A stretch of DNA of 64,000 nucleotides from Patescibacteria group bacterium (GCA_036845805.1 DAIUDD010000001.1:103594-167593); one strand, 5' to 3'; numbered from the stretch's first letter, positions 28,665 to 64,000 are shown. Notes: generated from the sequence alone by a model not told the origin. Program-made: numbers and translations.

Positions 28665-29825
28665 TTATTCCTCATAAACTTCCTCAGTCTTTTTAATCAT
28701 CTCTTCTAAACTGAATTTTTTAATTTCTTCTTGATTATTATGAGTAAAAATATTTTTTAGTGTTGGCTCTAAGATAAGTCTTTCTATCGCCATGGCTAAT
28801 TCTTTTGGTTTAGCTGGCGGAACCACTAAACCGTTTTTTTCATTTTCTATAATTTCGACAATTCCGCCCACATTAGTGGTAACGATCGGCACTTGTGCTG
28901 CCAATGCTTCTAAAATGACATATGGTAGGCCCTCCTTGACAGAAGGTAAACAAAAAACATCAAAAGCCTTTATATATTGAGACGCCTTTTCTCTGGCGCC
29001 CAATAGAATTATTTTGTTTTGTAAATTTAATTTTATAATTTCTTTTTTTAATTCTTCTCGCAAACCACCTTCGCCGATAATTATAAAATACATCTCGGAA
29101 TATTTTTCGATCAAAATTTTAGCCGCTCTAATTAAATAGATTAATCCTTTGGTGGCATAAAAATTGGCGATTGTTCCCACCCAAAAAGTGTTTGGTTTTA
29201 ATAGGTTGTTAATTTCTGCTAATTGCTCCTGCGCTTCTTTTTTTTCAAAAAAGGTTAATTCTTTTAGTTCAATTCCGTTATGGATGGTAATAAATTTTTG
29301 ATGATGGGCCACTTTGTTGTTTAATCCAACAATTTTATCCTTTTCCGAAACGCAAATAATTTTATCTTTAAGTCGGCCGCTCATTCGTTCCAATTGTAAA
29401 TAAAAAAATTTTCTCGGTATAGTTAATGGTTCGTTAAAGACGAAACCGTGCGCCGTATAAATAACTTTTAATTGTCTGCCTGTATTTTTTTTATAAAACC
29501 AAGCGGCAATTGTTCCGCCAAAACCGACTTTGCTGGAATTAAGGTGAACAATATCGGGTTTAAATTTTTTAATTAAAAAATAAATTTCAAAAATAGATAA
29601 AAAATCGCGCCAGAAATTTATTTCTCTGACCGTATATTTTAAGTGCCGAATCAGTATATTGTTTTGTGTTAATTTTTTTAACCATTTTTCTTCGGTCGGT
29701 CCACCAGCGGCAACCATAATTTGGTATTTATCTTTTGGCAAATGGGTGGCTAAATCAGCAATATATTTTTGGGCCCCGCCGAGTTCGCTTTGGGTTACCA
29801 AGTAGAGTATCTTTTTTATGTTCAT
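28665..29825 (-). CDS. Glycosyltransferase family 4
   Basis: EGLPYVILEALAAQVPIVTTNVGGIVEII motif. Two Rossmann halves. Confidence 0.8.
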   Translation of the reverse strand: MNIKKILYLVTQSELGGAQKYIADLATHLPKDKYQIMVAAGGPTEEKWLKKLTQNNILIRHLKYTVREINFWRDFLSIFEIYFLIKKFKPDIVHLNSSKVGFGGTIAAWFYKKNTGRQLKVIYTAHGFVFNEPLTIPRKFFYLQLERMSGRLKDKIICVSEKDKIVGLNNKVAHHQKFITIHNGIELKELTFFEKKEAQEQLAEINNLLKPNTFWVGTIANFYATKGLIYLIRAAKILIEKYSEMYFIIIGEGGLREELKKEIIKLNLQNKIILLGAREKASQYIKAFDVFCLPSVKEGLPYVILEALAAQVPIVTTNVGGIVEIIENEKNGLVVPPAKPKELAMAIERLILEPTLKNIFTHNNQEEIKKFSLEEMIKKTEEVYEE

Positions 29826-29844
29826 GTTTTAAGAATACAACGAA

Positions 29845-29873
29845 TTGCTAAAAAAGACAATTTAAGGTAAAAT
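29845..29873 (+). promoter_or_regulatory. Candidate promoter in divergent intergenic region
   Basis: TTGCTA, 17 bp, TAAAAT, 14 nt upstream of the 29888 start. Confidence 0.3.
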
Positions 29874-29887
29874 AAATATTAATAAAT

Positions 29888-31066
29888 ATGGCTGAAATAA
29901 GCAAAAATAAACCCAAAATACTAATTTTTTCCCTAGCATATGCCCCTTTTATTGGTGGCGCCGAGATTGCTGTTCAAAAAATCACCAAACGTCTCAGTGA
30001 TTATTTTGAATTTGATGTCATAACTTGTAATTTAAATGGAAAACAAAAAGAGGAAGAATGGAACGAGGGGGTAAAAATTTATCGTGTCGGTAATAGTTGG
30101 ATTGGTAAACAATTTTTTCATTATCTATCTTATAAAAAAGCGATCGAATTACACCAGGAAAATAATTATCTGGCTATTTGGTCAATTATGGCTAATAGAG
30201 CTGGGTTGGCGGCATTGAAATTTAAAGAAAAATTTTCAGAAGTAAAATATTTGTTAACTTTGCAAGAAGGCGATCCGCTGTCGCATATTTATTGGCGCAC
30301 TTGGTTTTGGTGGTGGCGTTATAAAAAAATTTATCAACAAGCTGATCATATTCAGGTGCTTAGTGCCTGGTTGGAAAAACGCGCCAGGAAATTTGGTTAT
30401 CAAAAGGAAATTAGCATCGTGCCCAATGGAGTAGATATTAACAAATTCAAAACTCAAAATTCAGATGTTAAAATTATGGAAGAATTAGATATACCGAAAG
30501 ATACTAAAATTATTTTTACCACCTCGCGTTTAGTTAAAAAGAATAATGTGATGAGTTTGATTAAAGCCACGAAGATGTTATTAACCGATTATAAAATTCC
30601 AGTAAATTTACTTATTGCTGGCGAAGGTGAATTAAAAAAACGATTAAAATTTCTTACTCACCAATTAGCCATAAAAAAAGAAGTTAATTTTTTAGGTTAC
30701 ATTTACTCAGAAGATTTACCTAAATATTATAATCTGGCAGATGTTTTTGTCCGCCCCTCCTTATCTGAAGGCTTTGGAATTTCCTTTGTCGAAGCTATGT
30801 CTGCCGGCGTACCTGTTGTTGCTACACCCGTTGGTGGTATTCTTGATTTTTTAATTGACGGCGAAACTGGTTGGTTTTGTGAGCCAAAAAACCCTGAAAG
30901 TATTGCCGAAAAAATTAATTATATTTTAGATAAAAAAAATCAAGCTGAAGTTGAGCGGGTGGTAGCGAATGCCAAAAAAATGGTAATGGAAAAATATACT
31001 TGGGATGTGGTGGCCACTCAAATGAAAGAAGTTTTTGATAATCTTATAAAAAATAAGTATGTTTAA
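29888..31066 (+). CDS. Glycosyltransferase family 4
   Basis: SEGFGISFVEAMSAGVPVVATPVGGILDFL. Confidence 0.8.
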   Translation: MAEISKNKPKILIFSLAYAPFIGGAEIAVQKITKRLSDYFEFDVITCNLNGKQKEEEWNEGVKIYRVGNSWIGKQFFHYLSYKKAIELHQENNYLAIWSIMANRAGLAALKFKEKFSEVKYLLTLQEGDPLSHIYWRTWFWWWRYKKIYQQADHIQVLSAWLEKRARKFGYQKEISIVPNGVDINKFKTQNSDVKIMEELDIPKDTKIIFTTSRLVKKNNVMSLIKATKMLLTDYKIPVNLLIAGEGELKKRLKFLTHQLAIKKEVNFLGYIYSEDLPKYYNLADVFVRPSLSEGFGISFVEAMSAGVPVVATPVGGILDFLIDGETGWFCEPKNPESIAEKINYILDKKNQAEVERVVANAKKMVMEKYTWDVVATQMKEVFDNLIKNKYV

Positions 31067-32819
31067 AAATTTATCAAAAATCGAAAGGAATATTTTAATT
31101 GGAATTTTAATCCTTTCTTTTGTTTTAATTTTTTTTCGTCTCACCAGGGCCGATCTTCAAGGCGATGATGCTCATTATTCATTTCGTGCCATTGGATATT
31201 TTGATTTTATGTCTTCCGATTATGGACAGACCACCCCGATTCAGTGGTTTAAAGGTTATGCGCCCTGGTGGACCAAGCTTTCATTTCATGATCATCCGCC
31301 ATTAGTTTTTATAATTCAACATCTGTTTTTTAAAATTTTTGGCGTGAATGATTTCAGTGCCAAATTGCCATTTGCCATAGCTGGGTGGTGCTTGATTTAC
31401 ATCGTTTTTTTAATTGGCAAAGAGCTTTTTAATAATAAAGCCGGACTCTTAGCGGCCCTTTTTTTGGCCCTTAATAGTAATCATATTTGGATTTCACGCG
31501 TTGGTTATTTAGAAAGTATCGTTATTTTTTTTATAGCTCTTTGTTTGTTATTTTTAATTAAGGGAAATAAACAAAGTAAATATTTAATTTGGATGGGTGT
31601 TTGTTTGGGTTTAGCCATGATTAGTAAATATACTGCATTTTTGTTAATTCCGATTATTTTTATTTATGCTTTAATTAATTATAAAAACATATTTAAAAAT
31701 AAAAATTTTTGGCTCGGTCTTATTCTAGCATTAATTATTTTTTCTCCAGTAATTTTTTATAATATCAAAGTTTATCAAACCCGCGGCCACGCCGATGTGC
31801 AATTTACCGCCCTTTTAAATTTACCTAAAACCGATTGGCCAATTTTAGCTCAAAGATCAGTTTTACAAAGAGAAGCATATCCAACCATCTTTTTTTATCT
31901 TTTTAAAAATTTAGGTTCTTATACATCTTGGCCTCTATTAGCATTATTTTTTATTTCTTTTTTTTATCTTTTGGTTAAATTAATTTTTGTTCCAGAATTT
32001 AATAAACAAAAAAGTTATTCTTTTCTTTTTCTTGTTTTTATTTTTCTTTCATTTTTTTTTATAATTACTGGTTTAAACAACTCCTTTTATATTACACCCC
32101 TTAATTTTGTCACGGCTCTTTTTATGGGGGCCGCTTTGATTGATGTTTATAATCAAATTAGACATAAAAAAATTTTAACTTATGTTGCTTTTTGTTGTTT
32201 AATTATTTTTTCTATCTATTTTTTATTATTTATTTATAACACTAATCATCGCTTTGATCTGCATGAATCGAAATTTTTATTCGGCGCCAATCGTTTAGAA
32301 AATCTTGGCTTTCAGTCTCTAACAAAATTTATTTCTGATAATTTAAAAGGCAAATATGCTGGTACCATATCGATGAATTTTACTCCTCTACAACGTTATA
32401 ATCCTAACCAAGAAACCACTGGACCGTGGCATGGTAAAGAAGAAAATAGGATGATTTATATTTATGATGATAGTACACAGTGGTTTGCTCGCCTTTGGTA
32501 TTTAGAACGTTGGCGTTTATATTATTTTTTTCCTTTTATTGGTACCAAAGAATTAAGCAAATTAACTCTTAATAAAGATGAGATAAAAAACCAAGACTTA
32601 GTTTTTAAAGACGGTTTTTATTATTTGAAAAGCACTCAAGATATTCAATTAGATAAAAGCAACTCTTCTAATAATTGTGCCGCCGCTCTGCAGGACACTT
32701 TAGATAATTACCCTAACACAGAAGTAATTGAATTAAATAACGAAACTGGGCAGGCCATGTTTAAAGTTTATAAATTTTATGATCTTAAACCCTTTTTAGC
32801 TTGCGAAATGTTTTTATAA
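31059..32819 (+). CDS. GT-C fold membrane glycosyltransferase (ArnT/PMT-like)
   Basis: About 12 TMs. First loop DLQGDDAHY ... HDHPPLVF (DD/hPPL motifs). Confidence 0.65.
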   Translation: MFKNLSKIERNILIGILILSFVLIFFRLTRADLQGDDAHYSFRAIGYFDFMSSDYGQTTPIQWFKGYAPWWTKLSFHDHPPLVFIIQHLFFKIFGVNDFSAKLPFAIAGWCLIYIVFLIGKELFNNKAGLLAALFLALNSNHIWISRVGYLESIVIFFIALCLLFLIKGNKQSKYLIWMGVCLGLAMISKYTAFLLIPIIFIYALINYKNIFKNKNFWLGLILALIIFSPVIFYNIKVYQTRGHADVQFTALLNLPKTDWPILAQRSVLQREAYPTIFFYLFKNLGSYTSWPLLALFFISFFYLLVKLIFVPEFNKQKSYSFLFLVFIFLSFFFIITGLNNSFYITPLNFVTALFMGAALIDVYNQIRHKKILTYVAFCCLIIFSIYFLLFIYNTNHRFDLHESKFLFGANRLENLGFQSLTKFISDNLKGKYAGTISMNFTPLQRYNPNQETTGPWHGKEENRMIYIYDDSTQWFARLWYLERWRLYYFFPFIGTKELSKLTLNKDEIKNQDLVFKDGFYYLKSTQDIQLDKSNSSNNCAAALQDTLDNYPNTEVIELNNETGQAMFKVYKFYDLKPFLACEMFL

Positions 32820-32828
32820 ATTTAATTT

Positions 32829-33263
32829 ATGTTAACACAAATAATTAATTTAATTTGGCATCATTTTTTTTTAAAATTTAAACAATTTTTTAAATTTTGT
32901 GTTGTTGGAACTACTGGCGCGATCATTGATATTGGTGGCCTGTGGCTATTGGTTGAATTCGTTGGCTTATATTATTTGGTTGGCGCCACCATTTCTTTTG
33001 TGGCCGCTGTTATTAATAATTATTTTTTAAATAAATATTGGACTTTTAAAGATCAAAGCAAAATTAGTCTCGCACAATTTTTTTCATTTTCTATAATTAG
33101 TGTCATCGGTTTGGGTATTAATTTATTAACTATGTATATTTTTGTCGAATGTGTTAATTTAAATTATTTAATTAGCAAAGCCATTGCCTCCCTGATTGTG
33201 TTATCGTGGAATTTTTTAATGAATAAATACATCACCTTTAAAAAATCTTATGGCCCAGTCTAA
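32829..33263 (+). CDS. GtrA-family membrane protein
   Basis: FFKFCVVGTTGAIIDIGGLWLLVEFVGLYYLVGATISF...NYFLNKYWTFK is the PF04138 pattern. Four TM. Confidence 0.75.
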   Translation: MLTQIINLIWHHFFLKFKQFFKFCVVGTTGAIIDIGGLWLLVEFVGLYYLVGATISFVAAVINNYFLNKYWTFKDQSKISLAQFFSFSIISVIGLGINLLTMYIFVECVNLNYLISKAIASLIVLSWNFLMNKYITFKKSYGPV

Positions 33264-34413
33264 AAAAATTTTTATTGCTGCGGAAATTTTTCCGCCCGCT
33301 ATTGGTGGTCCGGCCACCTATGCCTTAGAGTTATCCAATGCCTTGCAACAACACAATTTTAAAGTTCGAATTTTGTGTTATGGTCGTCCCGACAAAACAG
33401 TTCTCAACCCAGGCATAAAAATAAACTGGGTTTCCAACAATTGGCCTTTATTTATTAAATATTTTTTATATTTTAAAAAATTGTTTTGCTTTTCCTTAAG
33501 ATATCGAACTATTTACGCCATGGGTCCAGTCGCTTCAGGTTTGCCAGCTTTTTTAGTTAAAAAAATTACTGGCAAAAAATTAATTGTTAAAGTTGTGGGC
33601 GACTATGCTTGGGAGCGAGCTTTTAATTCTGGTCAAACAAAATTTTTGCTTGACGATTTTTTAAACCAGGACAAACAAAGTAGTAAAATTAGTTATTTGC
33701 AAAAAATTGAACGCCTTGTTTGTTACTCCGCTGATTTAGTGATCACCCCGAGCGAATATTTAAAAGAGGTCGTCAAAAAATGGGGGATTACGGCAGAAAA
33801 AATAAAAGTTATCTATAACGCTTTTTTTATTCGTCCTGCCAACCCCAATCTAACACCCGGTCAAAAAACTGAAAAGAAAAAAGGATTAATTGTCTCTATT
33901 GGTCGGTTGGTTCCTTGGAAAGGTTTTAATGTTTTAATTAAAATTATGCCAGATTTATTAAAAAGAGAACCAAATTTTAATTTAAAAATTTTTGGCGATG
34001 GGCCAGAAAAAGAAAAACTGTATCAACTTATCAAAGAATTAAATTTAAATGAAAAAGTTACCATAGAAAAACTTGATCATGACGAATTAATGCGGCAGCT
34101 AATAGTTGCTGACATGTTTGTTTTAAATACTGGTTATGAGGGTTTATCACACAGCATTTTAGAAGCCTTTGCTGCCAATCTGCCAGTTATTACTACTTCC
34201 GTTGGTGGCAATTTGGAATTAATTAAAAATAATGAAAATGGTCTAATAATTGAATATAATAATAAAGAAGAGCTAAAAGAGTCAATTTTTACTCTTTACC
34301 AAAAACCAGATTTGTGTCAAAAATTTATAAACAACAGTAAAAATATATTAATAAAATTTGATCCTGAAAAAATAATCAAAGAAACAATAGAAGTTTTATC
34401 ATTATATGCATAA
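33250..34413 (+). CDS. Glycosyltransferase family 4
   Basis: YEGLSHSILEAFAANLPVITTSVGGNLELI. Confidence 0.8.
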   Translation: MAQSKKIFIAAEIFPPAIGGPATYALELSNALQQHNFKVRILCYGRPDKTVLNPGIKINWVSNNWPLFIKYFLYFKKLFCFSLRYRTIYAMGPVASGLPAFLVKKITGKKLIVKVVGDYAWERAFNSGQTKFLLDDFLNQDKQSSKISYLQKIERLVCYSADLVITPSEYLKEVVKKWGITAEKIKVIYNAFFIRPANPNLTPGQKTEKKKGLIVSIGRLVPWKGFNVLIKIMPDLLKREPNFNLKIFGDGPEKEKLYQLIKELNLNEKVTIEKLDHDELMRQLIVADMFVLNTGYEGLSHSILEAFAANLPVITTSVGGNLELIKNNENGLIIEYNNKEELKESIFTLYQKPDLCQKFINNSKNILIKFDPEKIIKETIEVLSLYA

Positions 34414-35875
34414 AGTAATTTTAGTGCAGCCGAAAAATAATGCTCTGGAAACAACCTATGCTCCTTTGGGTCTTTTAAGTTTGGCTGCCTATATTCGTTC
34501 TGAATTTGAGGTTAAAATTATTGATTTGCGTTTTACCACGACCAACGAACTTTATCAATTAATTAAAGACTGGCAACCACTCGCCGTTGGCTTTAGCATG
34601 TTAACTGGCAGCGCCATTACACAAATTATTGAAGTTTCACAATTTATTAAAGAAAATTATCCAGAAATTAAAACTATTGTTGGCGGCATTCACCCCACTT
34701 TTTTCCCCCAACAAACATTAGCTAATCAATACCTTGATTTTGTGGTAATCAATGAGGGTGAAAAAGTTATGCTTGATCTGCTCAAATCTTTGGTTGGCGA
34801 TCAAAATTTTTCCAATATTAATAATTTGTGTTGGAAAGATAAAAACCACGAAATACACTGTAACCAACTCAATGATAATTTTTTAAATCTTAATGATTTA
34901 CCCATGCCGGCCTGGGATTTAATTGATGTTACTCGTTATGTTAAAAATTTATCTACCAACCCGGGCGAGTATGTTATTGATTTTTATACCAGCAAGGGTT
35001 GCCCATTCCCGTGTAGTTTTTGTTATAATTTAAATTTTAATAAACGACAATGGCGCGCCAGAAGCGCTGAACGGGCAGTGGCAGAATTAGAATATTTATT
35101 TAATCAATATCATATTAATTATTTTATTATTCACGATGATAATTTTGTGGTTGATCGAGAACGCGCCCTAAAATTTGCCGAACTTATTCTTGCTAAAGGA
35201 TTAAAAGTCAAATATTCCGTTGATGCCAGAGTTGATTTTTTTGATTACAATTTTTTGCAAACTCTTAAAGAAAGTGGCTTGTGTGAACTTCGGGTTGGTT
35301 GTGAAAGTGGATCTAACCGATTGTTAAAAGAGATAATTGATAAACAAATTACCGTGGAACAAATTATTCGGGCGGTCGAGATAGCTAAAAGTTTGGATTT
35401 AAAAGTTCTCTTATCATTTGTTATCGCTTGGCCCACCGAAACAATTAAGGAAAGACAGGCGACAATTAATTTGATTCTTAAATTATTATCTCTTCATCCG
35501 GGCGCTTGGATTTATCCGCTCTGGATTTATATCCCTTATCCTGGTACCACCTTATTTAATAAAGCAACAGAATTGGGATTTCAAGCGCCTGAAAATTTAG
35601 AATCTTGGGGTAATTATTTCTGGAGCAAGGCCCATCTCCCTTGGCTTAACAAACCAAAAGAATATGAACTAATTCACGATTTAAGTCCGTTTGCTTGGTA
35701 TCAGCGTCCCTGGTCAGGTCTAAAAAATAAGTCTATAAAAAGTACTTTAAAGTTTGTTTTTATTAAATTTTTTCGTCAGTTTGTCTTGTTTCGTTTTAAA
35801 CACAATTTTTGGCTTTTTCCATATGAAGTTAAATTGGCAATCAATTTAAAAAAATTTTTTGCAAAAATCTATTAA
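34406..35875 (+). CDS. B12-binding domain radical SAM protein (class B radical SAM)
   Basis: N-terminal B12-binding Rossmann-like region (VILVQPKN...LGLLSLAAYI..., DxxG-type). CxxxCxxC cluster SKGCPFPCSFCYN. Confidence 0.8.
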   Translation: MHKVILVQPKNNALETTYAPLGLLSLAAYIRSEFEVKIIDLRFTTTNELYQLIKDWQPLAVGFSMLTGSAITQIIEVSQFIKENYPEIKTIVGGIHPTFFPQQTLANQYLDFVVINEGEKVMLDLLKSLVGDQNFSNINNLCWKDKNHEIHCNQLNDNFLNLNDLPMPAWDLIDVTRYVKNLSTNPGEYVIDFYTSKGCPFPCSFCYNLNFNKRQWRARSAERAVAELEYLFNQYHINYFIIHDDNFVVDRERALKFAELILAKGLKVKYSVDARVDFFDYNFLQTLKESGLCELRVGCESGSNRLLKEIIDKQITVEQIIRAVEIAKSLDLKVLLSFVIAWPTETIKERQATINLILKLLSLHPGAWIYPLWIYIPYPGTTLFNKATELGFQAPENLESWGNYFWSKAHLPWLNKPKEYELIHDLSPFAWYQRPWSGLKNKSIKSTLKFVFIKFFRQFVLFRFKHNFWLFPYEVKLAINLKKFFAKIY

Positions 35876-35892
35876 ATAAACTACTAAATTTT

Positions 35893-37050
35893 ATGAATAT
35901 TTTAATGCTTAGCTCGGACAAAACAGTTCTTAATGGCACAAGAATTGGCGACACAATTAACCGTCTGGAACTATATGGAAAAAATTTAACTTGGCTTGAT
36001 GTTGTTGTTTATGCTAATAAAAAAGAAAATTTTGATACTGTCAAAATTTCATCCAATGTCACCGGGATACCTTCAAATTCTTGGTCCAAATTATTTTTTT
36101 GTTTTGATGTTATAAAAATTTTTCACCGTCTTAATCTTAAACACAAAATAGATCTGATTATTGCTCAGGATCCTTTTATTTTTGCTTTGGCTGGTTGGTG
36201 GCTTAAGAAAAAATACAAAATCAAATTATTAATTCATTTTCATGGTGATTTTTGGCAAAATCCACAATGGCTCCAAGAAAAATGGTATAACATATTTCTA
36301 TTATTTTTAAGTTATTATACCGTTAAAAAAGCTGACGCCATTCGAGTTGTTTCGGCGGGTATTAAACAAAAATTAATTAGACGGGGGATTGGTGCCCAAA
36401 AAATAACAGTTATTTCGACTCCCGTAAATCTTAGATTATTTTTAATGGCAGACACCAAACAAAATCAATTAATAAAACAAAAATTTGGCCTCGTGTCAGA
36501 AGATAAGATAATTTTATTTGTTGGTCGTCTTGAACCGGAAAAAAATTTGTTGTGGTTTTTAGATGTTTTTAACGAGGTTATTAAACATGAACAATATGCC
36601 AAATTTTTAATTATTGGTACCGGCGGTGAAAGAAACAAAATAATTAAAAAAATAAAATTTTTAAATTTAACTAATAAAATAATTTTAATTGGAGGCATTA
36701 GTCATGCCGAACTACCTATTTATTATCATCTAGCTAATGTATTAGTTTTGCCTTCCACCTCTGAAAGTTTTGGCAAGGTTTTGGTCGAAGCCGGCGCTGC
36801 CGCCATACCGTGTGTGGCTTCGGCCACTACTGGTGCCAAAGAAATAATTAAAGATAATAAAACCGGATTTCTGGTACCCATTAATAATTTAGAAGAAATG
36901 AAAAATAAAATCCTGACCGTTTTAGCTGATAAAGAGTTGCAAAAAAAAATGGGCCAAACAGCCCAAAATTTTGTGAAAGAAAATTTTTCTCGCGAAATAT
37001 TAATTAAAAAAATAATTTATTTGTGGTCAAAAACAATCAACCAACTGTAA
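35893..37050 (+). CDS. Glycosyltransferase family 4
   Basis: SESFGKVLVEAGAAAIPCVASATTGAKEII. Confidence 0.8.
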   Translation: MNILMLSSDKTVLNGTRIGDTINRLELYGKNLTWLDVVVYANKKENFDTVKISSNVTGIPSNSWSKLFFCFDVIKIFHRLNLKHKIDLIIAQDPFIFALAGWWLKKKYKIKLLIHFHGDFWQNPQWLQEKWYNIFLLFLSYYTVKKADAIRVVSAGIKQKLIRRGIGAQKITVISTPVNLRLFLMADTKQNQLIKQKFGLVSEDKIILFVGRLEPEKNLLWFLDVFNEVIKHEQYAKFLIIGTGGERNKIIKKIKFLNLTNKIILIGGISHAELPIYYHLANVLVLPSTSESFGKVLVEAGAAAIPCVASATTGAKEIIKDNKTGFLVPINNLEEMKNKILTVLADKELQKKMGQTAQNFVKENFSREILIKKIIYLWSKTINQL

Positions 37051-37495: not shown

Positions 37496-37538
37496 AATTA
37501 TGAACACCACAGACGTTCCAAGTATGTAAAACACCCTG

Positions 37539-42699: not shown

Positions 42700-42736
42700 T
42701 TTTAAATTTTGATTTTTAAATTTTAAATTAAATAAA

Positions 42737-44563: not shown

Positions 44564-44567
44564 ATAT

Positions 44568-45698: not shown

Positions 45699-45700
45699 AT

Positions 45701-50280: not shown

Positions 50281-50284
50281 AATT

Positions 50285-55738: not shown

Positions 55739-55739
55739 T

Positions 55740-56597
55740 ATGCCCCAAATTTCTATTATTATTCCAACCCACAATCGTCCTGATACACTAAAAAAAGCAG
55801 CGCTTTCAGTTTTAAGCCAATCTTATCAAGATTGGGAACTGATTATTGTTGATGATGGATTAAAGATTAGGGCCGAAAGTGTTGCTAAAGAATTAAATGA
55901 TTCGCGTATTAAATATGTTCCTCATGAACAAGAACAAGGTGGCGGCGCCGCTCGCAATACTGGTATTAAAGCCGCCCAAAGTAATTTTATTGCTTTTTTA
56001 GATGACGATGATGAGTGGCTGCCAGAAAAATTATCTATTCAGATGGCGCAATTTGAAAATACTGCCCCAAATATTGGTTTTTGTTTTTGTGCTGTCAAAA
56101 ACATAACCGATCACGGTCAAGAAAAAACTTCCGTTCCCGAAGGCACGGCTAATTATTTTGAATTATCTTTAAGCACTTTTAAAAAATTTCTGACTGTCAC
56201 ATTGATTATTAAAAAACATGTCTTTAATGAAGTTGGTTTGTTTGATGAAACTTTACCTAGCCACCAAGAAGCAGAATTAATGATCAGGATCACCAAAAAA
56301 TTTAAAGGATTGGGCATTAATCAGCCATTAGTTAATGTAGATATGGTGGCTGGTCATGAACACGTTGGTAACAATTTAATCAAAAGGATTCGGGGCAGGG
56401 AATTAGTTTTAAAAAAACACGAAGCAGAATTTAAAAAACGACCAACTGTTTTTGCTGGTCATTTATTTACTTTAGGAATTTTATATCGTCAAAACAAAAA
56501 TTATCAACAAGCACAAAAAAATTTTAAAAAAGCCTGGCGAACAAATTTTAAGTGGCGATATTTTTGTCATTATTTATTAATGTTAATTAAACATTAA
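55740..56597 (+). CDS. Glycosyltransferase family 2
   Basis: ISIIIPTHNRPDTLKKAALSVLSQSYQDWELIIVDDG...FLDDDDEW. Confidence 0.75.
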   Translation: MPQISIIIPTHNRPDTLKKAALSVLSQSYQDWELIIVDDGLKIRAESVAKELNDSRIKYVPHEQEQGGGAARNTGIKAAQSNFIAFLDDDDEWLPEKLSIQMAQFENTAPNIGFCFCAVKNITDHGQEKTSVPEGTANYFELSLSTFKKFLTVTLIIKKHVFNEVGLFDETLPSHQEAELMIRITKKFKGLGINQPLVNVDMVAGHEHVGNNLIKRIRGRELVLKKHEAEFKKRPTVFAGHLFTLGILYRQNKNYQQAQKNFKKAWRTNFKWRYFCHYLLMLIKH

Positions 56598-57627
56598 TAT
56601 TTTCTTTGTTGGTCGCCAAGTAACGTCCTTCCGAACAAATATTGCACATAGCAATATTTTTTCTTTCTTTAAAAATTTCTTTTCTAAAATTTTTATATTT
56701 TTTCCCGTGCCAAATATTTTTAATTTTTTCTTGGCAAACATTGCCCATAATGTAATTCGAATATAAATCATAACAACACGGTACAACATTGCCATCGCAA
56801 TTTATTACCATTGAACTAAGAACTTGGGAACAAAAATTTGGTATTTCTCCTTTTAGTTTAAAAGTGCCATCGGCCATTTTTTCGTAACGCGTCAATGAGG
56901 CGTCAGACGGTAATAACTCTGCGGCCATTTTTTGAAAATCAGAATCATTAATATCAATCCCAGCTGTTTTTTCCGCATAAACATCAACCATAAGTTCGGC
57001 GGCTATTTGTTTCATTTTTTCCCTTTGATGTTCATTATGCTTCATTAAAATAAATTGTAATTCAATAATTGGAGTAGGGGAGCGTAATTGTTTTTTTAAA
57101 TTAATAATAGTTTGAAAACTTTTAATAATATGCTCAAAATTAGTATTAACTCTAAATTTTTTTAATGTCTCGTCATCGGCACCGTCTAAACAAATAATTA
57201 AATAATCTAAACCACTCATTATTAAATCTTGACAAAATTTTTCATCTTTAAAAAATTCCCCGTTCGTGCTGGTTTTAATATACAGCCCAGCCTCCTTAGC
57301 ATATTTTATCATCTCAATTATTTCCGGATGCATAAAAGGCTCGCCGTAGTTAAATAATACCAGTTTTTTAGTGTAACCGCGCAATTGATCAATTGTGTTT
57401 TTGTAATTTTCCAAACTCATCATGCCTTTAGGTCGGTTTAATTTTCCCGACCCAGTTGGGCATGTCGGACACTTCATGGTGCAGACATTAGTTGGTTCTA
57501 AAATTAAAGTTTCCGGTAACGGTGCCAGGTTTTTTTTAATCTTTAATTTATTTTTTATTTTATACCACAGCAAATCAATCTGACCCAATTGGATTAAATT
57601 AATTATTGGTTTTATTTTTTTAAACAT
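56587..57627 (-). CDS. Radical SAM/SPASM domain protein
   Basis: CTMKCPTC (CxxxCxxC). C-terminal CSQV...INCDGNVVPCCYDLY...CNICSEG SPASM-like cluster. Confidence 0.75.
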   Translation of the reverse strand: MFKKIKPIINLIQLGQIDLLWYKIKNKLKIKKNLAPLPETLILEPTNVCTMKCPTCPTGSGKLNRPKGMMSLENYKNTIDQLRGYTKKLVLFNYGEPFMHPEIIEMIKYAKEAGLYIKTSTNGEFFKDEKFCQDLIMSGLDYLIICLDGADDETLKKFRVNTNFEHIIKSFQTIINLKKQLRSPTPIIELQFILMKHNEHQREKMKQIAAELMVDVYAEKTAGIDINDSDFQKMAAELLPSDASLTRYEKMADGTFKLKGEIPNFCSQVLSSMVINCDGNVVPCCYDLYSNYIMGNVCQEKIKNIWHGKKYKNFRKEIFKERKNIAMCNICSEGRYLATNKENINV

Positions 57628-57631
57628 AATT

Positions 57632-58465
57632 TTACCATTGGTTTTCCTTACTTATTAATTTTTCTTGAGCTAAAATTTGTAGTTTTTTATCAGTCAACTT
57701 TAATCTATCCATTACTGGTTTATAACCTTCTTGCCATAAAGATTTCCAAACGGTATACACAAAACCAAAATAAGTTTTTTCTTGAGAAATGGCGTGTTTG
57801 ATTTTTTCTTGATCATGAAATTTAATCTGTCCAAAAGAGGGGTAATAATACACTTGCGTTCCATGAATTAAATTAGCCACCAAAGAAAAACCCATGTCAT
57901 CAGATTTTTTAAATTCTGGTGTCATATCTAGTATTCTTGGATGCATAACGATTGATTTACTAAACATGGAGATGCCCGGTCCAGCAGTGTCACAGATCAT
58001 TAAATCATTAATAATTTGCTGTCTAAAATTTACGTCTATTTTTAAAAAAGAATTTTCTTGGTATTTAGCCCACAAAGTGCACCAACACGACAAGATACTC
58101 TTGGTGGGTAAAGTTTGAAAAGTTTTCCACATTTTAAAAACAAAATTTTTATCTAACAATACAATGTCATCATCTAAAAAAAGCACGGTCTTATATTTTG
58201 CCATGGTCGCTAATTGATAACGGATTTGACAACGATAATTATAACTAGAATTAATAATCTTTATGTCAGAAAATTTTCTTATTCGTCGACCGATTTTAGT
58301 AAACAATGACGCACCAATAATTTTTTTGTTAAAATTATTACACAAGATGTATTCCACTTTTAAGTCATTTAAATTCTGGGCCAACAAACCATCTATTAAT
58401 GCGGTTAGGCCCTTTTTTCGATCATAAGTTAAAGTAATAATTGTTAAACCATTTTCTTGATTCAT
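57632..58465 (-). CDS. Glycosyltransferase family 2-like
   Basis: TIITLTYDRKKGLTALIDGL ... VLFLDDDIVL (DxD). Confidence 0.55.
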   Translation of the reverse strand: MNQENGLTIITLTYDRKKGLTALIDGLLAQNLNDLKVEYILCNNFNKKIIGASLFTKIGRRIRKFSDIKIINSSYNYRCQIRYQLATMAKYKTVLFLDDDIVLLDKNFVFKMWKTFQTLPTKSILSCWCTLWAKYQENSFLKIDVNFRQQIINDLMICDTAGPGISMFSKSIVMHPRILDMTPEFKKSDDMGFSLVANLIHGTQVYYYPSFGQIKFHDQEKIKHAISQEKTYFGFVYTVWKSLWQEGYKPVMDRLKLTDKKLQILAQEKLISKENQW

Positions 58466-59712
58466 ATTTTTTTAAAGTAATAATAATCAATAAAAATAAA
58501 AACAATCTGATGAGCAACGGTAGCTAAAATTGCTCCGGTGATTCCATAAATTGGTAATAAAATAAATAACCAAATTGCTTTTAAAAGTGGGTTAAGAATA
58601 TTGGTTAAATAAACCAATTTTTTCTCAGCATGAAGTAAGGTACCGATGCTTAAAAACCTTTCTGGAAAAAGAATTAAAACTAGGGTTAGATATTGAGCAT
58701 ATCGGACAGACTCTAAATATTGAGGAAAAAATATTTTATAAATATATGGCATTAATATAACAAAAATTACAATGGGAATAATTAAGATTAAGATAGCTTT
58801 AATAATCTTTAAAGGTAGTGTCTTTTTAATTATTTCTTTATTTTGTTCGGAAATCTTTGGCATCGAAATTGTTACTACCGATTTAAATAAAGACCTTAAT
58901 TGATTAACTGGGGCCAAAGCCATGGCATAAATAGCCAAAGCGGTTGCATCAAGATAGTGCCACATTAATAAACCGTCTAATTGAGTTACCAAATTTGCTA
59001 AAACACTAATTATCGTTAAGTGTTTGCCATAGTTAATAGCGGTCACATCAATTACGTTATTACCAACATATTTTTTAAAAGTAACTAATAAAAAAAATAC
59101 TCTGCCAAAAGTATAAAAGAATAAATAATTTAATAAAATTAAAAAAATATTATGCGTAAAAAATAAAGATATTAACATTGCCAAAGTTGCTAAAATTTTT
59201 ATCACCGCATTATATTTTGTTGTTTTGTCAAATCTTTTTTTGCCTTGCAAATAAGCATCAAAAACAGTTACGGAATCCATAAATGGTAAAAATAATCCCG
59301 CAATTAAAAAAACGAACATCAAAACATTGTTGTTTTGCCAGTAATAATAACCGGCTACTATTAAACATCCCAAAGCGCTTAAAATTCCCCAGGAAATCCT
59401 AGTTTTTAATGCTAATTTTAAAGTGCCATCTTCGTTTCTTGCCGCCGCTCTTAAAACAGCCGTATTAATACCGGCTAATGTCGGAATGGTCAGAATTGAT
59501 AAAACCGACAGAATATATTTATAAGTTCCGTATGTTTCTTTGGGTAATAAATTAGCAAAAGCAATTGCTAAAATAAACCCAGATGCCGCTGATATTATTT
59601 GCGCCACTGTCAGCCAAAAGCCACCCTGGGCCAAATAAACCATATCAGTCTTGGTACATTTTTCTGTACCACGCAATATTTTAATTACAATTAATTTAAT
59701 TTTTTTCCACAT
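58462..59712 (-). CDS. Oligosaccharide flippase (Wzx/MOP superfamily)
   Basis: About 12 TM helices. Size and hydropathy typical of polysaccharide biosynthesis flippases. Sits inside the glycan locus. Confidence 0.6.
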   Translation of the reverse strand: MWKKIKLIVIKILRGTEKCTKTDMVYLAQGGFWLTVAQIISAASGFILAIAFANLLPKETYGTYKYILSVLSILTIPTLAGINTAVLRAAARNEDGTLKLALKTRISWGILSALGCLIVAGYYYWQNNNVLMFVFLIAGLFLPFMDSVTVFDAYLQGKKRFDKTTKYNAVIKILATLAMLISLFFTHNIFLILLNYLFFYTFGRVFFLLVTFKKYVGNNVIDVTAINYGKHLTIISVLANLVTQLDGLLMWHYLDATALAIYAMALAPVNQLRSLFKSVVTISMPKISEQNKEIIKKTLPLKIIKAILILIIPIVIFVILMPYIYKIFFPQYLESVRYAQYLTLVLILFPERFLSIGTLLHAEKKLVYLTNILNPLLKAIWLFILLPIYGITGAILATVAHQIVFIFIDYYYFKKI

Positions 59713-60658
59713 ATTTTAATTCTACATTTAAAATAAAATCTAATGAATCTGTTAAAGAAAGTTTTGGTTGCCAATTTAACATTTTTTTTGCTTTTTTACA
59801 AGAACCATAAATTTTTGTTATTTTGCTTGAGTCGAACTCGTTTTTAAATTCAATTTGCCAACCATTTTTTTTTGCTCGTTTTTTTAATTTCTGACAGAAT
59901 TCACATATACTAACGGCGTGTCCGGAACACAAATTAAACACTTCGCCCGTGATCACTGACTTTTTATTCAATAAATAATAAAATTTAACTGCCTCGCGAA
60001 TATCTAAAAAATCACGAACATTATCTGGATTAAAAATTTTTACTATTGGATTTTTGCTTTTTTGTGTTTTAATCTGTTCCAAAATATTACCAATTAATAA
60101 TTTTTTCGGTGTACTCGGCCCAATTAAATTAAATGGCCTCACCAAATTAACCGCCGATCGATCTTTTACCGTTAAAAAAAAGTCACTTTGTTTTTTTTTG
60201 CTTAATCCATAATCATTATTTGGCTCAAGCAAACTTTTTTCTGTTATTGGATTTTTATTATTTACTCCATATTCAGCTGCGCTACCAATTAATAAAATCC
60301 TTGGTTGCTGGGGATAATTTTTGGCCGCTTTAAATAAATTTATTGTTGATTTATAATTTACATCAAGATATTTTTTAAATGAACTAGCTATAATCAAACC
60401 AGCTAAGTGATAAACGTAGTCTGGCTGATGTTTTTTAAAAACATTTTTCCAAACTTCAAATTTTGTCAAATCACCTTGATAATAAAAAATCCTCTCTCGT
60501 TCCAACCAATTTTTTTTTGTTTCTAAACCATAATCAAGATCTACCCCAACAACATACGCATCTTTTTCTTTATTCAAAATGTAATTAGCTAAAAAATTAC
60601 CAGATAATCCATTAATTCCGGTAATTAAATGACATTCTGTTTTTAATTTTTTAACCAT
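59696..60658 (-). CDS. NAD-dependent epimerase/dehydratase (GDP-mannose 4,6-dehydratase/Rmd-like)
   Basis: LITGINGLSGNFLANYIL resembles the GMD ITGITGQDGSYL motif. YGLSKK catalytic YxxxK. Confidence 0.65.
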   Translation of the reverse strand: MVKKLKTECHLITGINGLSGNFLANYILNKEKDAYVVGVDLDYGLETKKNWLERERIFYYQGDLTKFEVWKNVFKKHQPDYVYHLAGLIIASSFKKYLDVNYKSTINLFKAAKNYPQQPRILLIGSAAEYGVNNKNPITEKSLLEPNNDYGLSKKKQSDFFLTVKDRSAVNLVRPFNLIGPSTPKKLLIGNILEQIKTQKSKNPIVKIFNPDNVRDFLDIREAVKFYYLLNKKSVITGEVFNLCSGHAVSICEFCQKLKKRAKKNGWQIEFKNEFDSSKITKIYGSCKKAKKMLNWQPKLSLTDSLDFILNVELKYVEKN

Positions 60659-61555
60659 TTATTTATTTTTAAACCAATTAACGTAGCTAGTTAAATCACG
60701 TTCAAAATCAGTTTGTGGTTTAAAACCATTTTTTTGTGCCTTTTCTATGCCAGCACACAATCTTTTTATCTCACCCGGTCTGGCTGCCGTATGAATAATA
60801 TTTGATTTCGAGCCAGTAATTTTAATAACCATTTCCGCCAATTGGTTAATACTTATTGTTGCACCCGTGCCAAAATTTAATTCTTCGCCCCAAAGTTCAT
60901 TCTTTAATGAAAATTCATATGCCGCTAATGCGTCCTGAATATACATAAAATCTCTTTCTTGATTTCCATCACCAAAAATTTCTAAAGGCTCATTTTTTAA
61001 GGCTCGATTAATAAATTTGGGGATTACTGCCCCATAAATATCGCTATTTTGATACTCACCAAAAACATTAAAATTACGCTGAATAATTACTTTAGTGCCA
61101 TAAGTTGTAAAATACGATTTACATAATCTATCTGCGCCAGCTTTAGAAGCACCATAAGGTGAATGTGGATTTAATGCATGATCTTCATTCATTACTTCGC
61201 TTAATGATGAACCATAAATCTCCGAGGAAGAAGCATAAATCATTTTTTTATTTAATTTTGTGACTGCATCTAAAATATTAACCGTACCTTCAACATTAAC
61301 TGCCACTGTTTCTTGGGCTTGATCAATGGATTTATCAACATTAATTTGAGCAGCTAAATGAAAAACAACATCAGCCCATTCTACAAATTTATAAACGCTT
61401 GGATAATAACGCACATCAGCATATGCCGATTCAACAATTTGACCACACGGGTGACTAACATTATCAATTCCTTTAACCTCATAACCATTATTTAACATTT
61501 TTTTATGCAAATGCGAACCAATAAAACCCAAATTTCCGGTAATAAGAATTTTCAT
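60659..61555 (-). CDS. NAD-dependent sugar epimerase/dehydratase (extended SDR)
   Basis: ILITGNLGFIGSHL. YGASKAGAD. Confidence 0.75.
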   Translation of the reverse strand: MKILITGNLGFIGSHLHKKMLNNGYEVKGIDNVSHPCGQIVESAYADVRYYPSVYKFVEWADVVFHLAAQINVDKSIDQAQETVAVNVEGTVNILDAVTKLNKKMIYASSSEIYGSSLSEVMNEDHALNPHSPYGASKAGADRLCKSYFTTYGTKVIIQRNFNVFGEYQNSDIYGAVIPKFINRALKNEPLEIFGDGNQERDFMYIQDALAAYEFSLKNELWGEELNFGTGATISINQLAEMVIKITGSKSNIIHTAARPGEIKRLCAGIEKAQKNGFKPQTDFERDLTSYVNWFKNK

Positions 61556-61576
61556 AAAAAATAAATTAATTTATAA

Positions 61577-61643: not shown

Positions 61644-61666
61644 TATAATAAAATAACAACTAATTT

Positions 61667-62635
61667 ATGATTAATTTTCCTTATCACCGCGCTCTGGTTA
61701 CTGGTGGCGCTGGTTTTATTGGCAGTCATATCGCGGAAGAACTTTTAAGCCTAGGGCTGGAAGTTATTAGTATTGATAATTATCTTTCTGGTAAAAGAGA
61801 AAATCTTAAAGATTTTTTAAGTAATTCGAAATTCAAAGAAGTTAATTGCGATGTGGTTAATTATGATGAATTAAAAAGATATTTTGATGGAGTAGATATT
61901 GTTTTTCACGAAGCTGCCTCTAAAAAAACCGTCTGTTTAAACGATCCTCGTCGTGATCTTGAAATTAATGCTAAGGGTACTTTTAACATTTTGGAATTAG
62001 CCCGTGATTTTGGCGTGAAAAAAGTTGTGCACGCTTCCACCGGGTCTGTTTATGGCGAAGCCATTTCCTATCCCCAAAATGAACATCACCCAGTTCATCC
62101 GACTTCTTATTATGGCGTTAGTAAATTGGCCGGTGAAAAATATGCCATGGCCTTTGCAAAATTATACAATCTAGATGTTACTGTTTTACGATATTTCCAT
62201 GTTTATGGACCACGCCAAGAGTATGCTGATGCTGGCGGAGTAGTTCCAATTTTTATTCGTCGAATTTTACAAAATCAGCCAATTTTAATTTTTGGCGATG
62301 GCACTCAACAACGTTCTTTCACTTATGTTAAAGACGTGGTTGCTGCTAACATCTTAGTCGCCACCTTACCGGAAACCAAAAACCAAGTTTATAATTGTGC
62401 TTCTGGTATTAAGGTTACTATTCAAGAACTGGCTGACAAAATTAAACAATCACTTGGTCGACGCGAACTGCCAATCGAATATAAAGATTGGGTTTTGGGT
62501 GATATTAAACTTTTTGATATTGATAATTCAAAATTAAAACAGCTTGGTTTTGAATTCAAAACTAACTTTGACAGTGGTTTATCTGAAACCATCTATTGGT
62601 TAAAAAAGAAATTTGAAAATGATTCATATGTATAA
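61667..62635 (+). CDS. NAD-dependent epimerase/dehydratase (UDP-sugar 4-epimerase / UDP-glucuronate decarboxylase-like)
   Basis: ALVTGGAGFIGSHIAEELL. YGVSKLAGE. Confidence 0.8.
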   Translation: MINFPYHRALVTGGAGFIGSHIAEELLSLGLEVISIDNYLSGKRENLKDFLSNSKFKEVNCDVVNYDELKRYFDGVDIVFHEAASKKTVCLNDPRRDLEINAKGTFNILELARDFGVKKVVHASTGSVYGEAISYPQNEHHPVHPTSYYGVSKLAGEKYAMAFAKLYNLDVTVLRYFHVYGPRQEYADAGGVVPIFIRRILQNQPILIFGDGTQQRSFTYVKDVVAANILVATLPETKNQVYNCASGIKVTIQELADKIKQSLGRRELPIEYKDWVLGDIKLFDIDNSKLKQLGFEFKTNFDSGLSETIYWLKKKFENDSYV

Positions 62636-63578
62636 AAATAAAACTATTGGTGTTAATGTGCCCGCATATAATGAGGAAAAATTAATTGGTAAAGTAATTA
62701 CTACTATGCCAGATTTTGTTGATAAAATAATAATTGTCAATGATTGTAGTACTGACAACACAAAAAATATTATAGAAAATTTTGCTGCTAGCGATCAACG
62801 AGTAGTTTTAATTAATCATCAAACCAACCAAGGTCTTGGCAAATCGTTAATTGATGGCTATTTAAAAAGTTTATCCTTAAACATGGATATCACCGTTGTT
62901 ATGGCGGGTGATGCACAAATGGATCCATTAGATTTGCCGGCCATTATTGAACCAATAGTAAACCAGGAGGCTGATTATACTAAGGGCAATCGTTTATTAG
63001 CACCCAACATTTCGCGCATCATGCCTACTTATCGTTTTATTGGTAATTCCTTTTTAACTTTATTAACTAAATTTGCCACCGGTTATTGGCACATTATTGA
63101 TCCGCAATCTGGTTATACTGCTATCAGTAAAACAGCATTAAATAAAATTAATATCTCTGCCATGACTCCTGGCTATGGTTACAATGCCGACCTTTTAACT
63201 ATGTTAAATATTGCCAATTTTAAAGTTAAAGATGTTGAGATTAAACCAATCTATGGCTCTGAAAAAAGCAAAATTAAAGTTGGTAAATATATTGTAAAAA
63301 TTTCCAAACTTTTAACCAAATTATTTTTTAAAAGAATGTGGCAAAAATATTTTGTGCGTGAATTTCATCCGCTTGTCTTTTTTTATTTTTTAAGTTTCAT
63401 TAATTTAATTCTCATTGCTTTGCCATTTTTTATTCGTTTTCTTTATCTCTACTTTAAACTGGGTATTGCTCCACAAACCACTTTAATTATCTTTGTCTTT
63501 ACCGCTACCATGGGTGTTTTCTCATTATTTTTTGGTATGTGGTTAGATATGGAAGACAATCGCCGTCTTAAATCATAA
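62613..63578 (+). CDS. Glycosyltransferase family 2 with C-terminal TM helices
   Basis: IGVNVPAYNEEKLI...IIIVNDCSTDNT...MAGDAQMD. Confidence 0.75.
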   Translation: MKMIHMYKNKTIGVNVPAYNEEKLIGKVITTMPDFVDKIIIVNDCSTDNTKNIIENFAASDQRVVLINHQTNQGLGKSLIDGYLKSLSLNMDITVVMAGDAQMDPLDLPAIIEPIVNQEADYTKGNRLLAPNISRIMPTYRFIGNSFLTLLTKFATGYWHIIDPQSGYTAISKTALNKINISAMTPGYGYNADLLTMLNIANFKVKDVEIKPIYGSEKSKIKVGKYIVKISKLLTKLFFKRMWQKYFVREFHPLVFFYFLSFINLILIALPFFIRFLYLYFKLGIAPQTTLIIFVFTATMGVFSLFFGMWLDMEDNRRLKS

Positions 63579-63589
63579 AATAAAAATTT

Positions 63590-64000
63590 ATGAATGCTAA
63601 TCCTAAAGATTATTTTCGTCACGGCATTTTTTTTAATCTCTATGGTTTATTTAAATATTTACCATCACCTTTGGGTGATGTTTTGCGTTATTTAATTATT
63701 AAAATTTTTATCAAAGAAATTGGTCGCGTGCGTATTTATGAAGGGGTTACCTTTTGGTACCCAGAGAGAATAAAAATAGGGGATAAGGTTACATTAAATG
63801 AATGGGTTTATTTAAATGGTTATGGTGGTTTAACAATTGAAGACGGAGTTAGAATTGGAGAACGCACTTCCATTATTACTTCTGATCACACTTTCGAAAA
63901 AAAAGATATTCCTATCTATCAACAAGCAATTATTGGCAGTCAAGTTATTATTGAAAAAAATGTCTGGATCGGTTGTCACGTTGTTATTCTAAAAGGTATT
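63590..64000 (+). CDS. Hexapeptide-repeat (left-handed beta-helix) acetyltransferase, 3' end outside window
   Basis: IKIGDKVTLNEWVYLNGYGGLTIEDGVRIGERTSI...IIGSQVIIEKNVWIGCHVVILKGI hexapeptide repeats. Open to the window end. Confidence 0.6.
   Translation, partial: MNANPKDYFRHGIFFNLYGLFKYLPSPLGDVLRYLIIKIFIKEIGRVRIYEGVTFWYPERIKIGDKVTLNEWVYLNGYGGLTIEDGVRIGERTSIITSDHTFEKKDIPIYQQAIIGSQVIIEKNVWIGCHVVILKGI

Follow-up and report, generated by a model that had tools for sequence, protein, structure and literature searches.

Positions 28,665 to 64,000 of a 64,000-nucleotide stretch of DNA from a Patescibacteria group bacterium (GCA_036845805.1, DAIUDD010000001.1:103594-167593; hereafter the window, meaning the whole stretch) are densely packed with surface-glycan genes. 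Based on its gene content and its conservation in related contigs, we consider it likely that the locus has been inherited vertically and acts as a modular machine for a heavily tailored surface heteroglycan carried on polyprenyl phosphate, in a Kuenenbacteria-like member of the Candidate Phyla Radiation (CPR). The kind of locus is already known: it is a polyprenol-dependent surface-glycan cluster with Wzx-type assembly and Gtr-like decoration, and nothing about it is categorically new, although some of its components are unusual when taken singly. No published account of the locus, or of glycan genes in Kuenenbacteria, turned up in literature searches. In CPR bacteria, which are thought to spend their lives attached to other cells, surface chemistry has hardly been characterised at all.

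Gene content and extent of the locus

The open reading frame (ORF) listing and Pfam scans yield 35 genes in positions 28,665–64,000 at a coding density of 98%, and about 23 of these encode carbohydrate enzymes above Pfam thresholds (Table 1). Pfam gathering scores served as the threshold for glycosyltransferase (GT) family calls and NCBIfam equivalog cut-offs for finer function; both collections bear out the dense surface-glycan content claimed in a preliminary description made from the sequence alone. Eight GT4 genes (Glycos_transf_1; 65–161 bits, cut-off 26.4) and four GT2 genes (Glycos_transf_2; 130, 114, 74, and 24.6 bits, cut-off 23.3) pass, the last of the GT2s marginally, so the GT calls withstand curated hidden Markov model thresholds and the earlier count of four GT2s stands. 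The count of at least 10 GT4s does not; a ninth GT4 lies upstream of the range at 22401 (here and below, genes are distinguished by their first position in the window). All GT4 paralogue pairs are less than 38% identical, indicating that the paralogues are old and ruling out recent duplication. Three small GT2s (227, 237, and 319 aa) are most similar to the NCBIfam families AglJ, dolichyl-phosphate hexose transferase, and PpgS. The polyprenyl glycosylphosphotransferase (PGT) is assigned by Bac_transf (232 bits) and TIGR03025 (413 bits, cut-off 295.55).

Other elements of the preliminary description were also recovered: a GT-C with GtrA, a Wzx-like flippase, a C-methyltransferase, AsnB, a carbamoyltransferase, an acetyltransferase, and three radical S-adenosylmethionine (SAM) proteins, on strands alternating in six short blocks. 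Tailoring genes for methyl, carbamoyl, acetyl, amide, and deoxy-sugar groups are thus present, as it had proposed. Three of its four short-chain dehydrogenase/reductases (SDRs) stand alone (59696, 60659, and 61667), and the fourth is the N-terminal domain of the protein it had described as an RmlD/RmlC fusion, which contains both of those domains and is really a three-domain protein, SDR, RmlD, and cupin. One of its two further methyltransferases lies in the range (41148) and the other upstream (17695). The putative SGNH hydrolase (54512) scores below threshold, though a GDS motif is present, and its orthologues give faint Pfam matches too.

The boundaries first drawn at 28,665 and 64,000 are too narrow. 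Glycan genes also occupy positions 13641–23486, including the PGT, and they run at least 4.5 kb past base 64000 on a contig identical to the window (L087), where three more genes encode a GATase plus WbuX-like N-acetyl-sugar amidotransferase, an LPG_synthase_TM protein, and a PMT_2 GT-C. The whole glycan region, upstream and downstream parts included, is about 55 kb. Embedded inside it are the housekeeping genes def, priA, and gap (25.1–28.5 kb) as well as a class A (bacterial) RNase P RNA (20334–20720, plus strand; 158.8 bits), which lies between a GT-C gene and the PGT gene. A 101-aa ORF (20462–20767, minus strand) is spurious because it lies opposite the RNase P RNA. The DUF5698 gene, the two small membrane ORFs, and the DUF5989 gene fall below a 100-aa ORF cut-off. 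For the last GT2 of the window, the exact protein is on record with the ATG start and not with the TTG start.

Conservation and variation among relatives

The 5′ part was compared in five relatives (L088, L089/L090, L091, and L126, with GAPDH proteins 83, 79, 77, and 70% identical to that of the window). All five keep the order PGT-GT4-def-priA-gap-GT4(-)-GT4-[GT-C or GT2]-GtrA-GT4-B12-binding radical SAM-GT4. The PGT and the GT4 at 22401 adjoin def-priA-gap in every relative at 70–75% identity. Within the 5′ core (28665–37050), identities extend from 29–33% for the GT4 at 33250 and the B12-binding radical SAM protein up to 51–63%, so that these two genes diverge markedly from flanking genes at 51–83%. 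A further GT4 follows the core in L088, L089/L090, and L091, and in L089/L090 a methyltransferase, an unannotated protein, and a GT4 come next. Toward the 3′ end, orthologues of the genes at 40103–46774 occur in L089 and L096. L096/L100 preserves the order AsnB-GT4-…-GT4-small-small-carbamoyltransferase-DUF5989-SGNH-like-GT2-SPASM(-)-GT2-like(-)-Wzx(-)-SDR-SDR, with most genes at 65–81% identity; the block at 55740–61555 is syntenic there at 40–81% identity.

The locus is also native in composition, with a GC content of 0.313 and a GC content at third codon positions (GC3) of 0.255, compared with 0.328 and 0.281 in the rest of the window, and no locus gene is an outlier. Insertion sequences, other mobile elements, tRNA boundaries, and repeats beyond short AT-rich chance repeats were not found; mobile-element boundaries could therefore be rejected. 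Five samples yielded contigs that match the window at 99.98–100% identity.

Differences among relatives involve whole cassettes. The block at 37232–39985 is missing in L088, L089, and L091 and appears to be a lineage-specific insertion. The C-methyltransferase and fusion genes are missing in L096, where another methyltransferase takes their place. Next to GtrA there is a GT-C in the window and in L088, a GT2 in L126, and neither in L089 and L091; the GT2 in L126 is the orthologue (53% identity) of the small GT2 at 51364, which suggests that GT2, GtrA, and GT-C form one unit. In L089 (Kuenenbacteria, GCA_002771275.1), a Wzy_C polymerase/ligase-type gene (2247–3551) lies between the small GT2 and the PGT, a position occupied in the window by a methyltransferase and a GT-C.

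These comparisons support a modular or mosaic locus, with a backbone that is conserved and native and cassettes that vary. The mosaic assembly suggested in the preliminary description is retained in this sense, as an exchange of cassettes on a constant backbone. Its probable hypervariable accessory region is not supported: the 5′ order is kept in relatives with GAPDH as little as 70% identical, the 3′ block recurs in another relative, and the GC and codon profile, one of the checks that it had itself proposed, matches that of the rest of the window. Conserved gene order among relatives, which it had named as evidence against accessory status, was largely found for the backbone.

Table 1. Features of the glycan region within the window (positions counted from its first base)
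Feature	Position	Strand	Basis
GT-C-like protein, AftA_N	13641-15371		Pfam
GT-C-like protein, PMT_2	15391-16284		Pfam
Unknown	16347-16991		
Small GT2, polyprenyl-phosphate-sugar-synthase-like	16995-17708		Pfam; NCBIfam AglJ/DPM/PpgS-like, below cut-offs
Methyltransferase	17695-18663		Pfam
PMT_2 GT-C	18666-20246	-	Pfam
Priming PGT	20801-22192	+	Bac_transf + CoA_binding_3
GT4 (ninth)	22401-23486	+	Upstream of 28,665
GT4	28665-29825	-	Pfam
GT4	29888-31066	+	Pfam
PMT_2 GT-C	31059-32819	+	107 bits; NCBIfam Agl23 match far below cut-off
GtrA	32829-33263	+	103 bits; adjoins PMT_2 GT-C 31059
GT4	33250-34413	+	Pfam
B12-binding radical SAM	34406-35875	+	Pfam
GT4	35893-37050	+	Pfam
DUF5698 small membrane protein	37232-37495	+	Pfam
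256-aa protein with internal duplication	37539-38309	-	Overlaps DedA, downstream of SPASM 38948
DedA/VTT	38290-38958	-	NF008102, 243 bits (cut-off 236); NCBIfam UptA matches
Radical SAM/SPASM	38948-39985	-	Pfam
GT4	40103-41164	+	Pfam
MetW-like methyltransferase	41148-41813	+	Pfam
Unannotated GT-A-like protein	41782-42699	+	Family comparison
AsnB-type amidotransferase	42737-44563	+	asn_synth_AEB (TIGR01536), 454 bits (cut-off 267)
GT4	44568-45698	+	Pfam
GT4	45701-46774	+	Pfam
NDP-hexose C-methyltransferase	46752-47990	+	Methyltransf_13/14
760-aa fusion, SDR + RmlD 4-ketoreductase + RmlC/FdtA-type cupin	47998-50280	+	Pfam, NCBIfam
GT4	50225-51319	+	Pfam
Small GT2, polyprenyl-phosphate-sugar-synthase-like	51364-52047	+	Pfam; NCBIfam AglJ/DPM/PpgS-like, below cut-offs
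Small membrane ORF (65 aa)	52065-52262	+	ORF listing
Small membrane ORF (84 aa)	52264-52518	+	ORF listing
NodU/CmcH-type carbamoyltransferase	52522-54282	+	Carbam_trans_N + Carbam_trans_C, 251 and 236 bits
DUF5989	54304-54501	+	Pfam
SGNH-like membrane-anchored protein	54512-55738	+	Pfam Lipase_GDSL/GDSL_2, 24.9 bits (cut-off 32.9); GDS motif present
GT2	55740-56597	+	Pfam
Radical SAM/SPASM	56587-57627	-	Pfam
GT2-like, marginal	57632-58465	-	Pfam, 24.6 bits (cut-off 23.3)
Wzx-type Polysacc_synt flippase	58462-59712	-	PF01943, 70.6 bits (cut-off 28.2); NCBIfam, no match
SDR	59696-60658	-	Pfam
SDR	60659-61555	-	Pfam
SDR, 4-epimerase-like	61667-62635	+	Pfam
GT2	62619-63578 (62613 with TTG start)	+	Pfam
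Hexapeptide acetyltransferase	Starts 63590, cut by window end	+	Pfam

Predicted pathway

The PGT belongs to the priming family and would act on polyprenyl phosphate, the substrate being predicted from the family. The nine GT4s, the GT2s at 55740 and 57632, and the GT-A-like protein would then elongate the chain in the cytoplasm, with precursors supplied by the three SDRs, the C-methyltransferase, and the SDR-RmlD-cupin fusion, whose RmlD domain is well assigned. Tailoring may include amidation by AsnB together with the WbuX-like enzyme encoded past the window end, O-carbamoylation by the carbamoyltransferase cassette, acetylation or deacetylation by the hexapeptide and SGNH-like proteins, and methylation by the MetW-like methyltransferase; the B12-binding and SPASM radical SAM enzymes would perform some form of radical chemistry at the same stage. 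The flippase, a member of the Wzx family, would move the lipid-linked glycan across the membrane. On the outside, a Gtr-like arm comprised of the small GT2 polyprenyl-phosphate-sugar synthases, GtrA, and the PMT_2 GT-Cs may add sugars or transfer the glycan to its final acceptor, an arm supported by the alternation of GT2 and GT-C next to GtrA among the relatives. The DedA protein, placed in its family by NCBIfam, may recycle the carrier, as its UptA-type similarity suggests.

Because the NCBIfam matches of the SDRs and radical SAM proteins are only sub-threshold, we assign them no substrate. With its conserved backbone and exchangeable tailoring cassettes, the locus offers concrete enzymes for testing, among them the SDR-RmlD-cupin fusion, the GT-A-like family that lacks annotation, and the B12 and SPASM radical SAM proteins. 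Viewed simply as a piece of the genome, it is an ordinary polysaccharide/glycoconjugate cluster and opens no new question by itself. A bolder proposal, which we consider a long shot, is that the conserved backbone encodes an envelope glycopolymer that defines the lineage of Kuenenbacteria-type CPR bacteria, with B12-dependent C-methylation and AsnB-paired SPASM chemistry new to surface polysaccharides, and with a carbamoylation cassette exchanged with DPANN archaea, making up an "episymbiont surface-decoration toolkit".

A proposed cassette for a C-methyl deoxy-sugar

The C-methyltransferase has the full TylC3-type layout, with a Zn-binding N-terminal domain, a SAM methyltransferase domain, and a C-terminal Methyltransf_14 domain (PF08421, 82 bits; PF13489, 61 bits; PF08484, 171 bits), and it matches no NCBIfam equivalog. 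In the fusion protein, the RmlD domain is assigned by TIGR01214 (321 bits, cut-off 224), and the cupin domain matches weakly (dTDP_sugar_isom, 30.7 bits; FdtA, 25.7 bits). A search of 5.8 billion proteins, in which only the 8000 candidates sharing the most words were scored, returned among those candidates no other full-length homologue of the fusion. The next matches are C-methyltransferase+SDR fusions that cover 43% of the 760-aa protein. In L093 the order is [C-methyltransferase+SDR]-RmlD-cupin, that is, the four domains occur in the window's order with a different fusion boundary. This recurrence of C-methyltransferase, SDR, RmlD, and cupin in one order with differing fusion points is good evidence that they form a four-enzyme cassette, predicted to make a C-methyl deoxy-sugar; from the chemistry of these families, the product would be an NDP-6-deoxy-C-methyl-hexose. 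Misassembly as the source of the triple fusion was ruled out, as the identical protein occurs in NCBI, JGI, Logan, and ENA data on four contigs of up to 722 kb.

A complete dTDP-L-rhamnose set (RmlA, B, C, and D) was not found in the window, where only the RmlD domain passes its equivalog cut-off. The best RmlB score among the SDRs is 182 bits (cut-off 365).

A putative carbamoylation cassette

The carbamoyltransferase is far from the NodU equivalog (164 bits, cut-off 1000). It is 70–74% identical to proteins of Woesearchaeota, Nanoarchaeota, and many other sources, and so is more conserved than GAPDH. A Woesearchaeota metagenome-assembled genome (MAG; GCA_002730625.1, L125 7511–11053) contains the two small ORFs, the carbamoyltransferase, and DUF5989 at 35, 56, 73, and 76% identity, in a locus that also carries a C-methyltransferase, a cupin, PMT_2, GT2, and GT4. 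The cassette recurs in L096/L100 and in L097. Its degree of conservation may reflect either cross-domain transfer or extreme constraint.

Radical SAM enzymes and unannotated proteins

The SPASM protein at 56587 is the best conserved member of its block, with 79% identity. Its distant homologues (28–37% identity) are found near AsnB-like, B12 radical SAM, GT4, and SDR genes in unrelated metagenome loci (L106, L109, L110, L115, L116, and L120). Such neighbourhoods suggest a recurrent role for radical SAM proteins in glycan loci.

The protein encoded at 41782–42699 has no Pfam match and no significant PDB match by sequence or profile search. Its family comprises 827 clusters at 50% identity; residues H62, H93, D167, and H283 are invariant, an LDSDxLWF motif is conserved, and certain members carry a fused GT4, GT8, GT6, or GtrA domain or weakly match GT8/Nucleotid_trans. 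The protein probably represents an unannotated GT-A-type transferase family outside Pfam. The 256-aa protein at 37539–38309 likewise has no Pfam match and nothing significant in a PDB sequence search; its internal duplication is clear (local score of 135 versus 31±5 after shuffling). Single-sequence AlphaFold2 models of both proteins were unusable (pLDDT ~35).

Alternative interpretations

Several observations weigh against the pathway proposed above. No Wzy, chain-length regulator, ABC exporter, LCP ligase, or oligosaccharyltransferase was detected with Pfam in the window, where no ORF of at least 100 aa matches Wzy_C, Wzz, or a tyrosine kinase, so the product could be a polymer, a single long oligosaccharide, or a protein-linked glycan. 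The window also lacks a nucleotidyltransferase (NTP_transferase) and a clearly assignable 4,6-dehydratase, all SDRs being below equivalog cut-offs; the radical SAM enzymes have no assignable reaction, with NCBIfam matches that are all sub-threshold; and the 3′ synteny comes from a single relative organism (L096/L100). The lack of Wzy and Wzz in the window would fit a locus engaged mainly in protein glycosylation, with PMT_2-type GT-Cs transferring one long Wzx-flipped oligosaccharide and/or polyprenyl-phosphate-monosaccharides to Ser/Thr of a surface layer (S-layer) protein, pilin, or other surface protein, instead of a free polysaccharide or wall polymer being formed. We regard this as possible though rather unlikely; it overlaps the proposed pathway, from which it differs solely in the acceptor. 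The locus and its immediate surroundings contain five PMT_2/AftA-like GT-C genes, the small GT2s are closest to AglJ of archaeal S-layer N-glycosylation, the GT-C at 31059 matches Agl23, and glycosylated S-layers have been suggested in the CPR literature (PMC5220378). However, the AglJ and Agl23 scores are far below curated cut-offs, PMT_2 enzymes also act on lipids and polysaccharides, neither an acceptor protein nor an oligosaccharyltransferase was identified in the window, and one relative (L089) has a Wzy_C gene beside its PGT.

Another reading of the variation among relatives is an accessory island that was acquired horizontally and varies between strains, as O-antigen or capsule serotype loci do. 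The cassette differences are consistent with this (the C-methyltransferase and fusion missing in L096, the 37.2–40 kb block missing in L088, L089, and L091, and GT-C and GT2 alternating at GtrA), as are the low identity of the central GT4 and B12 radical SAM genes relative to their flanks and a carbamoyltransferase cassette common to archaea at 73–76% identity. The backbone order, however, holds down to 70% GAPDH identity with def-priA-gap embedded, its composition is native, mobile-element signatures are lacking, and the contigs from five samples are nearly identical, so this interpretation is largely refuted for the backbone and highly unlikely overall. A narrower alternative would remove some genes from the glycan pathway: the two SPASM proteins, the B12 radical SAM protein, DedA, and the 256-aa repeat protein may be passengers from another pathway, such as maturation of a ribosomally synthesized and post-translationally modified peptide or of a cofactor. 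The best NCBIfam matches are to maturases of such peptides or cofactors (ApyD, a tungsten-cofactor maturase, and PqqE-like proteins), all far below cut-off, and the 37.2–40 kb block forms an opposite-strand insertion. We consider this quite improbable, since the B12 radical SAM gene lies between two GT4s in all five relatives, the SPASM protein at 56587 is the best conserved of its block and has distant homologues that again lie among AsnB-like, GT, and SDR genes, no precursor peptide is evident, and DedA proteins are polyprenyl-phosphate transporters.

Comparison with known systems

The locus resembles Wzx-dependent O-antigen, capsule, and exopolysaccharide (EPS) clusters (colanic acid wca, Streptococcus cps, and TIGR03025-primed EPS) in its clustered PGT, GT4 and GT2 proteins, Wzx, SDRs, and acetyl and methyl tailoring. 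It differs from those clusters in several ways: the window yielded no Wzy, Wzz, Wza, or tyrosine kinase, def, priA, gap, and the RNase P RNA lie inside the locus, the host belongs to the CPR and presumably lacks an outer membrane, and the region is unusually long, about 55 kb in a genome of roughly 0.7–1 Mb. The small GT2s, GtrA, and PMT_2 GT-Cs are reminiscent of the extracytoplasmic glycosylation systems Gtr, Arn, and CsbB-GtcA-YfhO, which have three components (a GT2 polyprenyl-phosphate-sugar synthase, a GtrA-family flippase, and a GT-C), but several GT-Cs and GT2s occur here rather than one set, and matches to characterised members are below curated cut-offs.

NodU/CmcH/SxtI O-carbamoyltransferases share the Carbam_trans_N/C domains and are likewise flanked by very small membrane proteins; DUF5989 and the two small ORFs may be equivalents of SxtK and SxtJ. 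The carbamoyltransferase described here differs in its glycan-locus context and in its distance from the NodU equivalog. For saxitoxin clusters, a joint action of SxtI with two small proteins, SxtJ and SxtK, has been proposed (PMC2679770). The pairing of a Methyltransf_13/14 C-methyltransferase with an RmlD 4-ketoreductase and an RmlC/FdtA-type cupin is found in TylC3/EryBIII-type pathways (mycarose), except that three enzymes are fused here into one 760-aa protein; alongside these, the closest analogy is the virenose pathway proposed for Coxiella lipopolysaccharide (PMC3539893). Archaeal Agl N-glycosylation and DPANN glycan loci are alike in that AglJ and Agl23 are the best NCBIfam matches of the small GT2s and a GT-C, and in the carbamoylation cassette of Woesearchaeota. 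They differ in that AglB oligosaccharyltransferase is missing here, and genes in common beyond the carbamoylation cassette are only 24–40% identical.

Host and other genes in the window

The host appears to be a Kuenenbacteria-like Patescibacteria/CPR bacterium. Its nearest GAPDH relatives in a large protein collection (83–68% identity) include Candidatus Kuenenbacteria and "Patescibacteria group" MAGs, and one related contig is from an activated-sludge metagenome. Among species-representative genomes, the closest GAPDH (61%) belongs to a Moraniibacteriota MAG; a GAPDH-anchored scan of these genomes found relatives at no more than 61% identity and no shared neighbourhood, and is uninformative on synteny. 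The small genome assumed in the preliminary description agrees with the CPR-like affiliation and with exact proteins of the window on a contig of up to 722 kb. The premise is reasonable, with a genome of roughly 0.7–1 Mb. At several percent of a genome below 1 Mb, the ~55-kb region would make the surface glycan a major investment for the host. An abundance of glycosyltransferases is a known trait of CPR genomes (PMC5220378).

At positions 38–1480, the C-terminal portion of a ribonucleotide reductase precedes a CobA/BtuR corrinoid adenosyltransferase (884–1480). This pair indicates that the reduced genome supports corrinoid salvage, in keeping with a B12-dependent radical SAM protein in the glycan locus. 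Four tRNA genes (Tyr, Ala, Thr, and Trp) are interspersed at 1943–4617 with a class I Tyr/Trp-type tRNA synthetase gene (tRNA-synt_1b), the true start of which is probably downstream because the TTG start at 2002 overlaps the tRNA-Tyr gene. A nucleoside deoxyribosyltransferase-like gene (3345–3728) has a raised GC content of 0.417.

Between the GT4 at 22401 and def, a gene on the minus strand (23536–25008) encodes a 490-aa protein with a Por_Secre_tail domain, a C-terminal sorting domain of the type IX secretion system type. Its GC content of 0.466 and GC3 of 0.517 compare with a genome GC of about 0.32. The gene is missing at the equivalent position in L088, L089, L091, and L126, whereas three independent assemblies contain it. 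It has the look of foreign DNA inserted here, perhaps from a member of the Bacteroidota.

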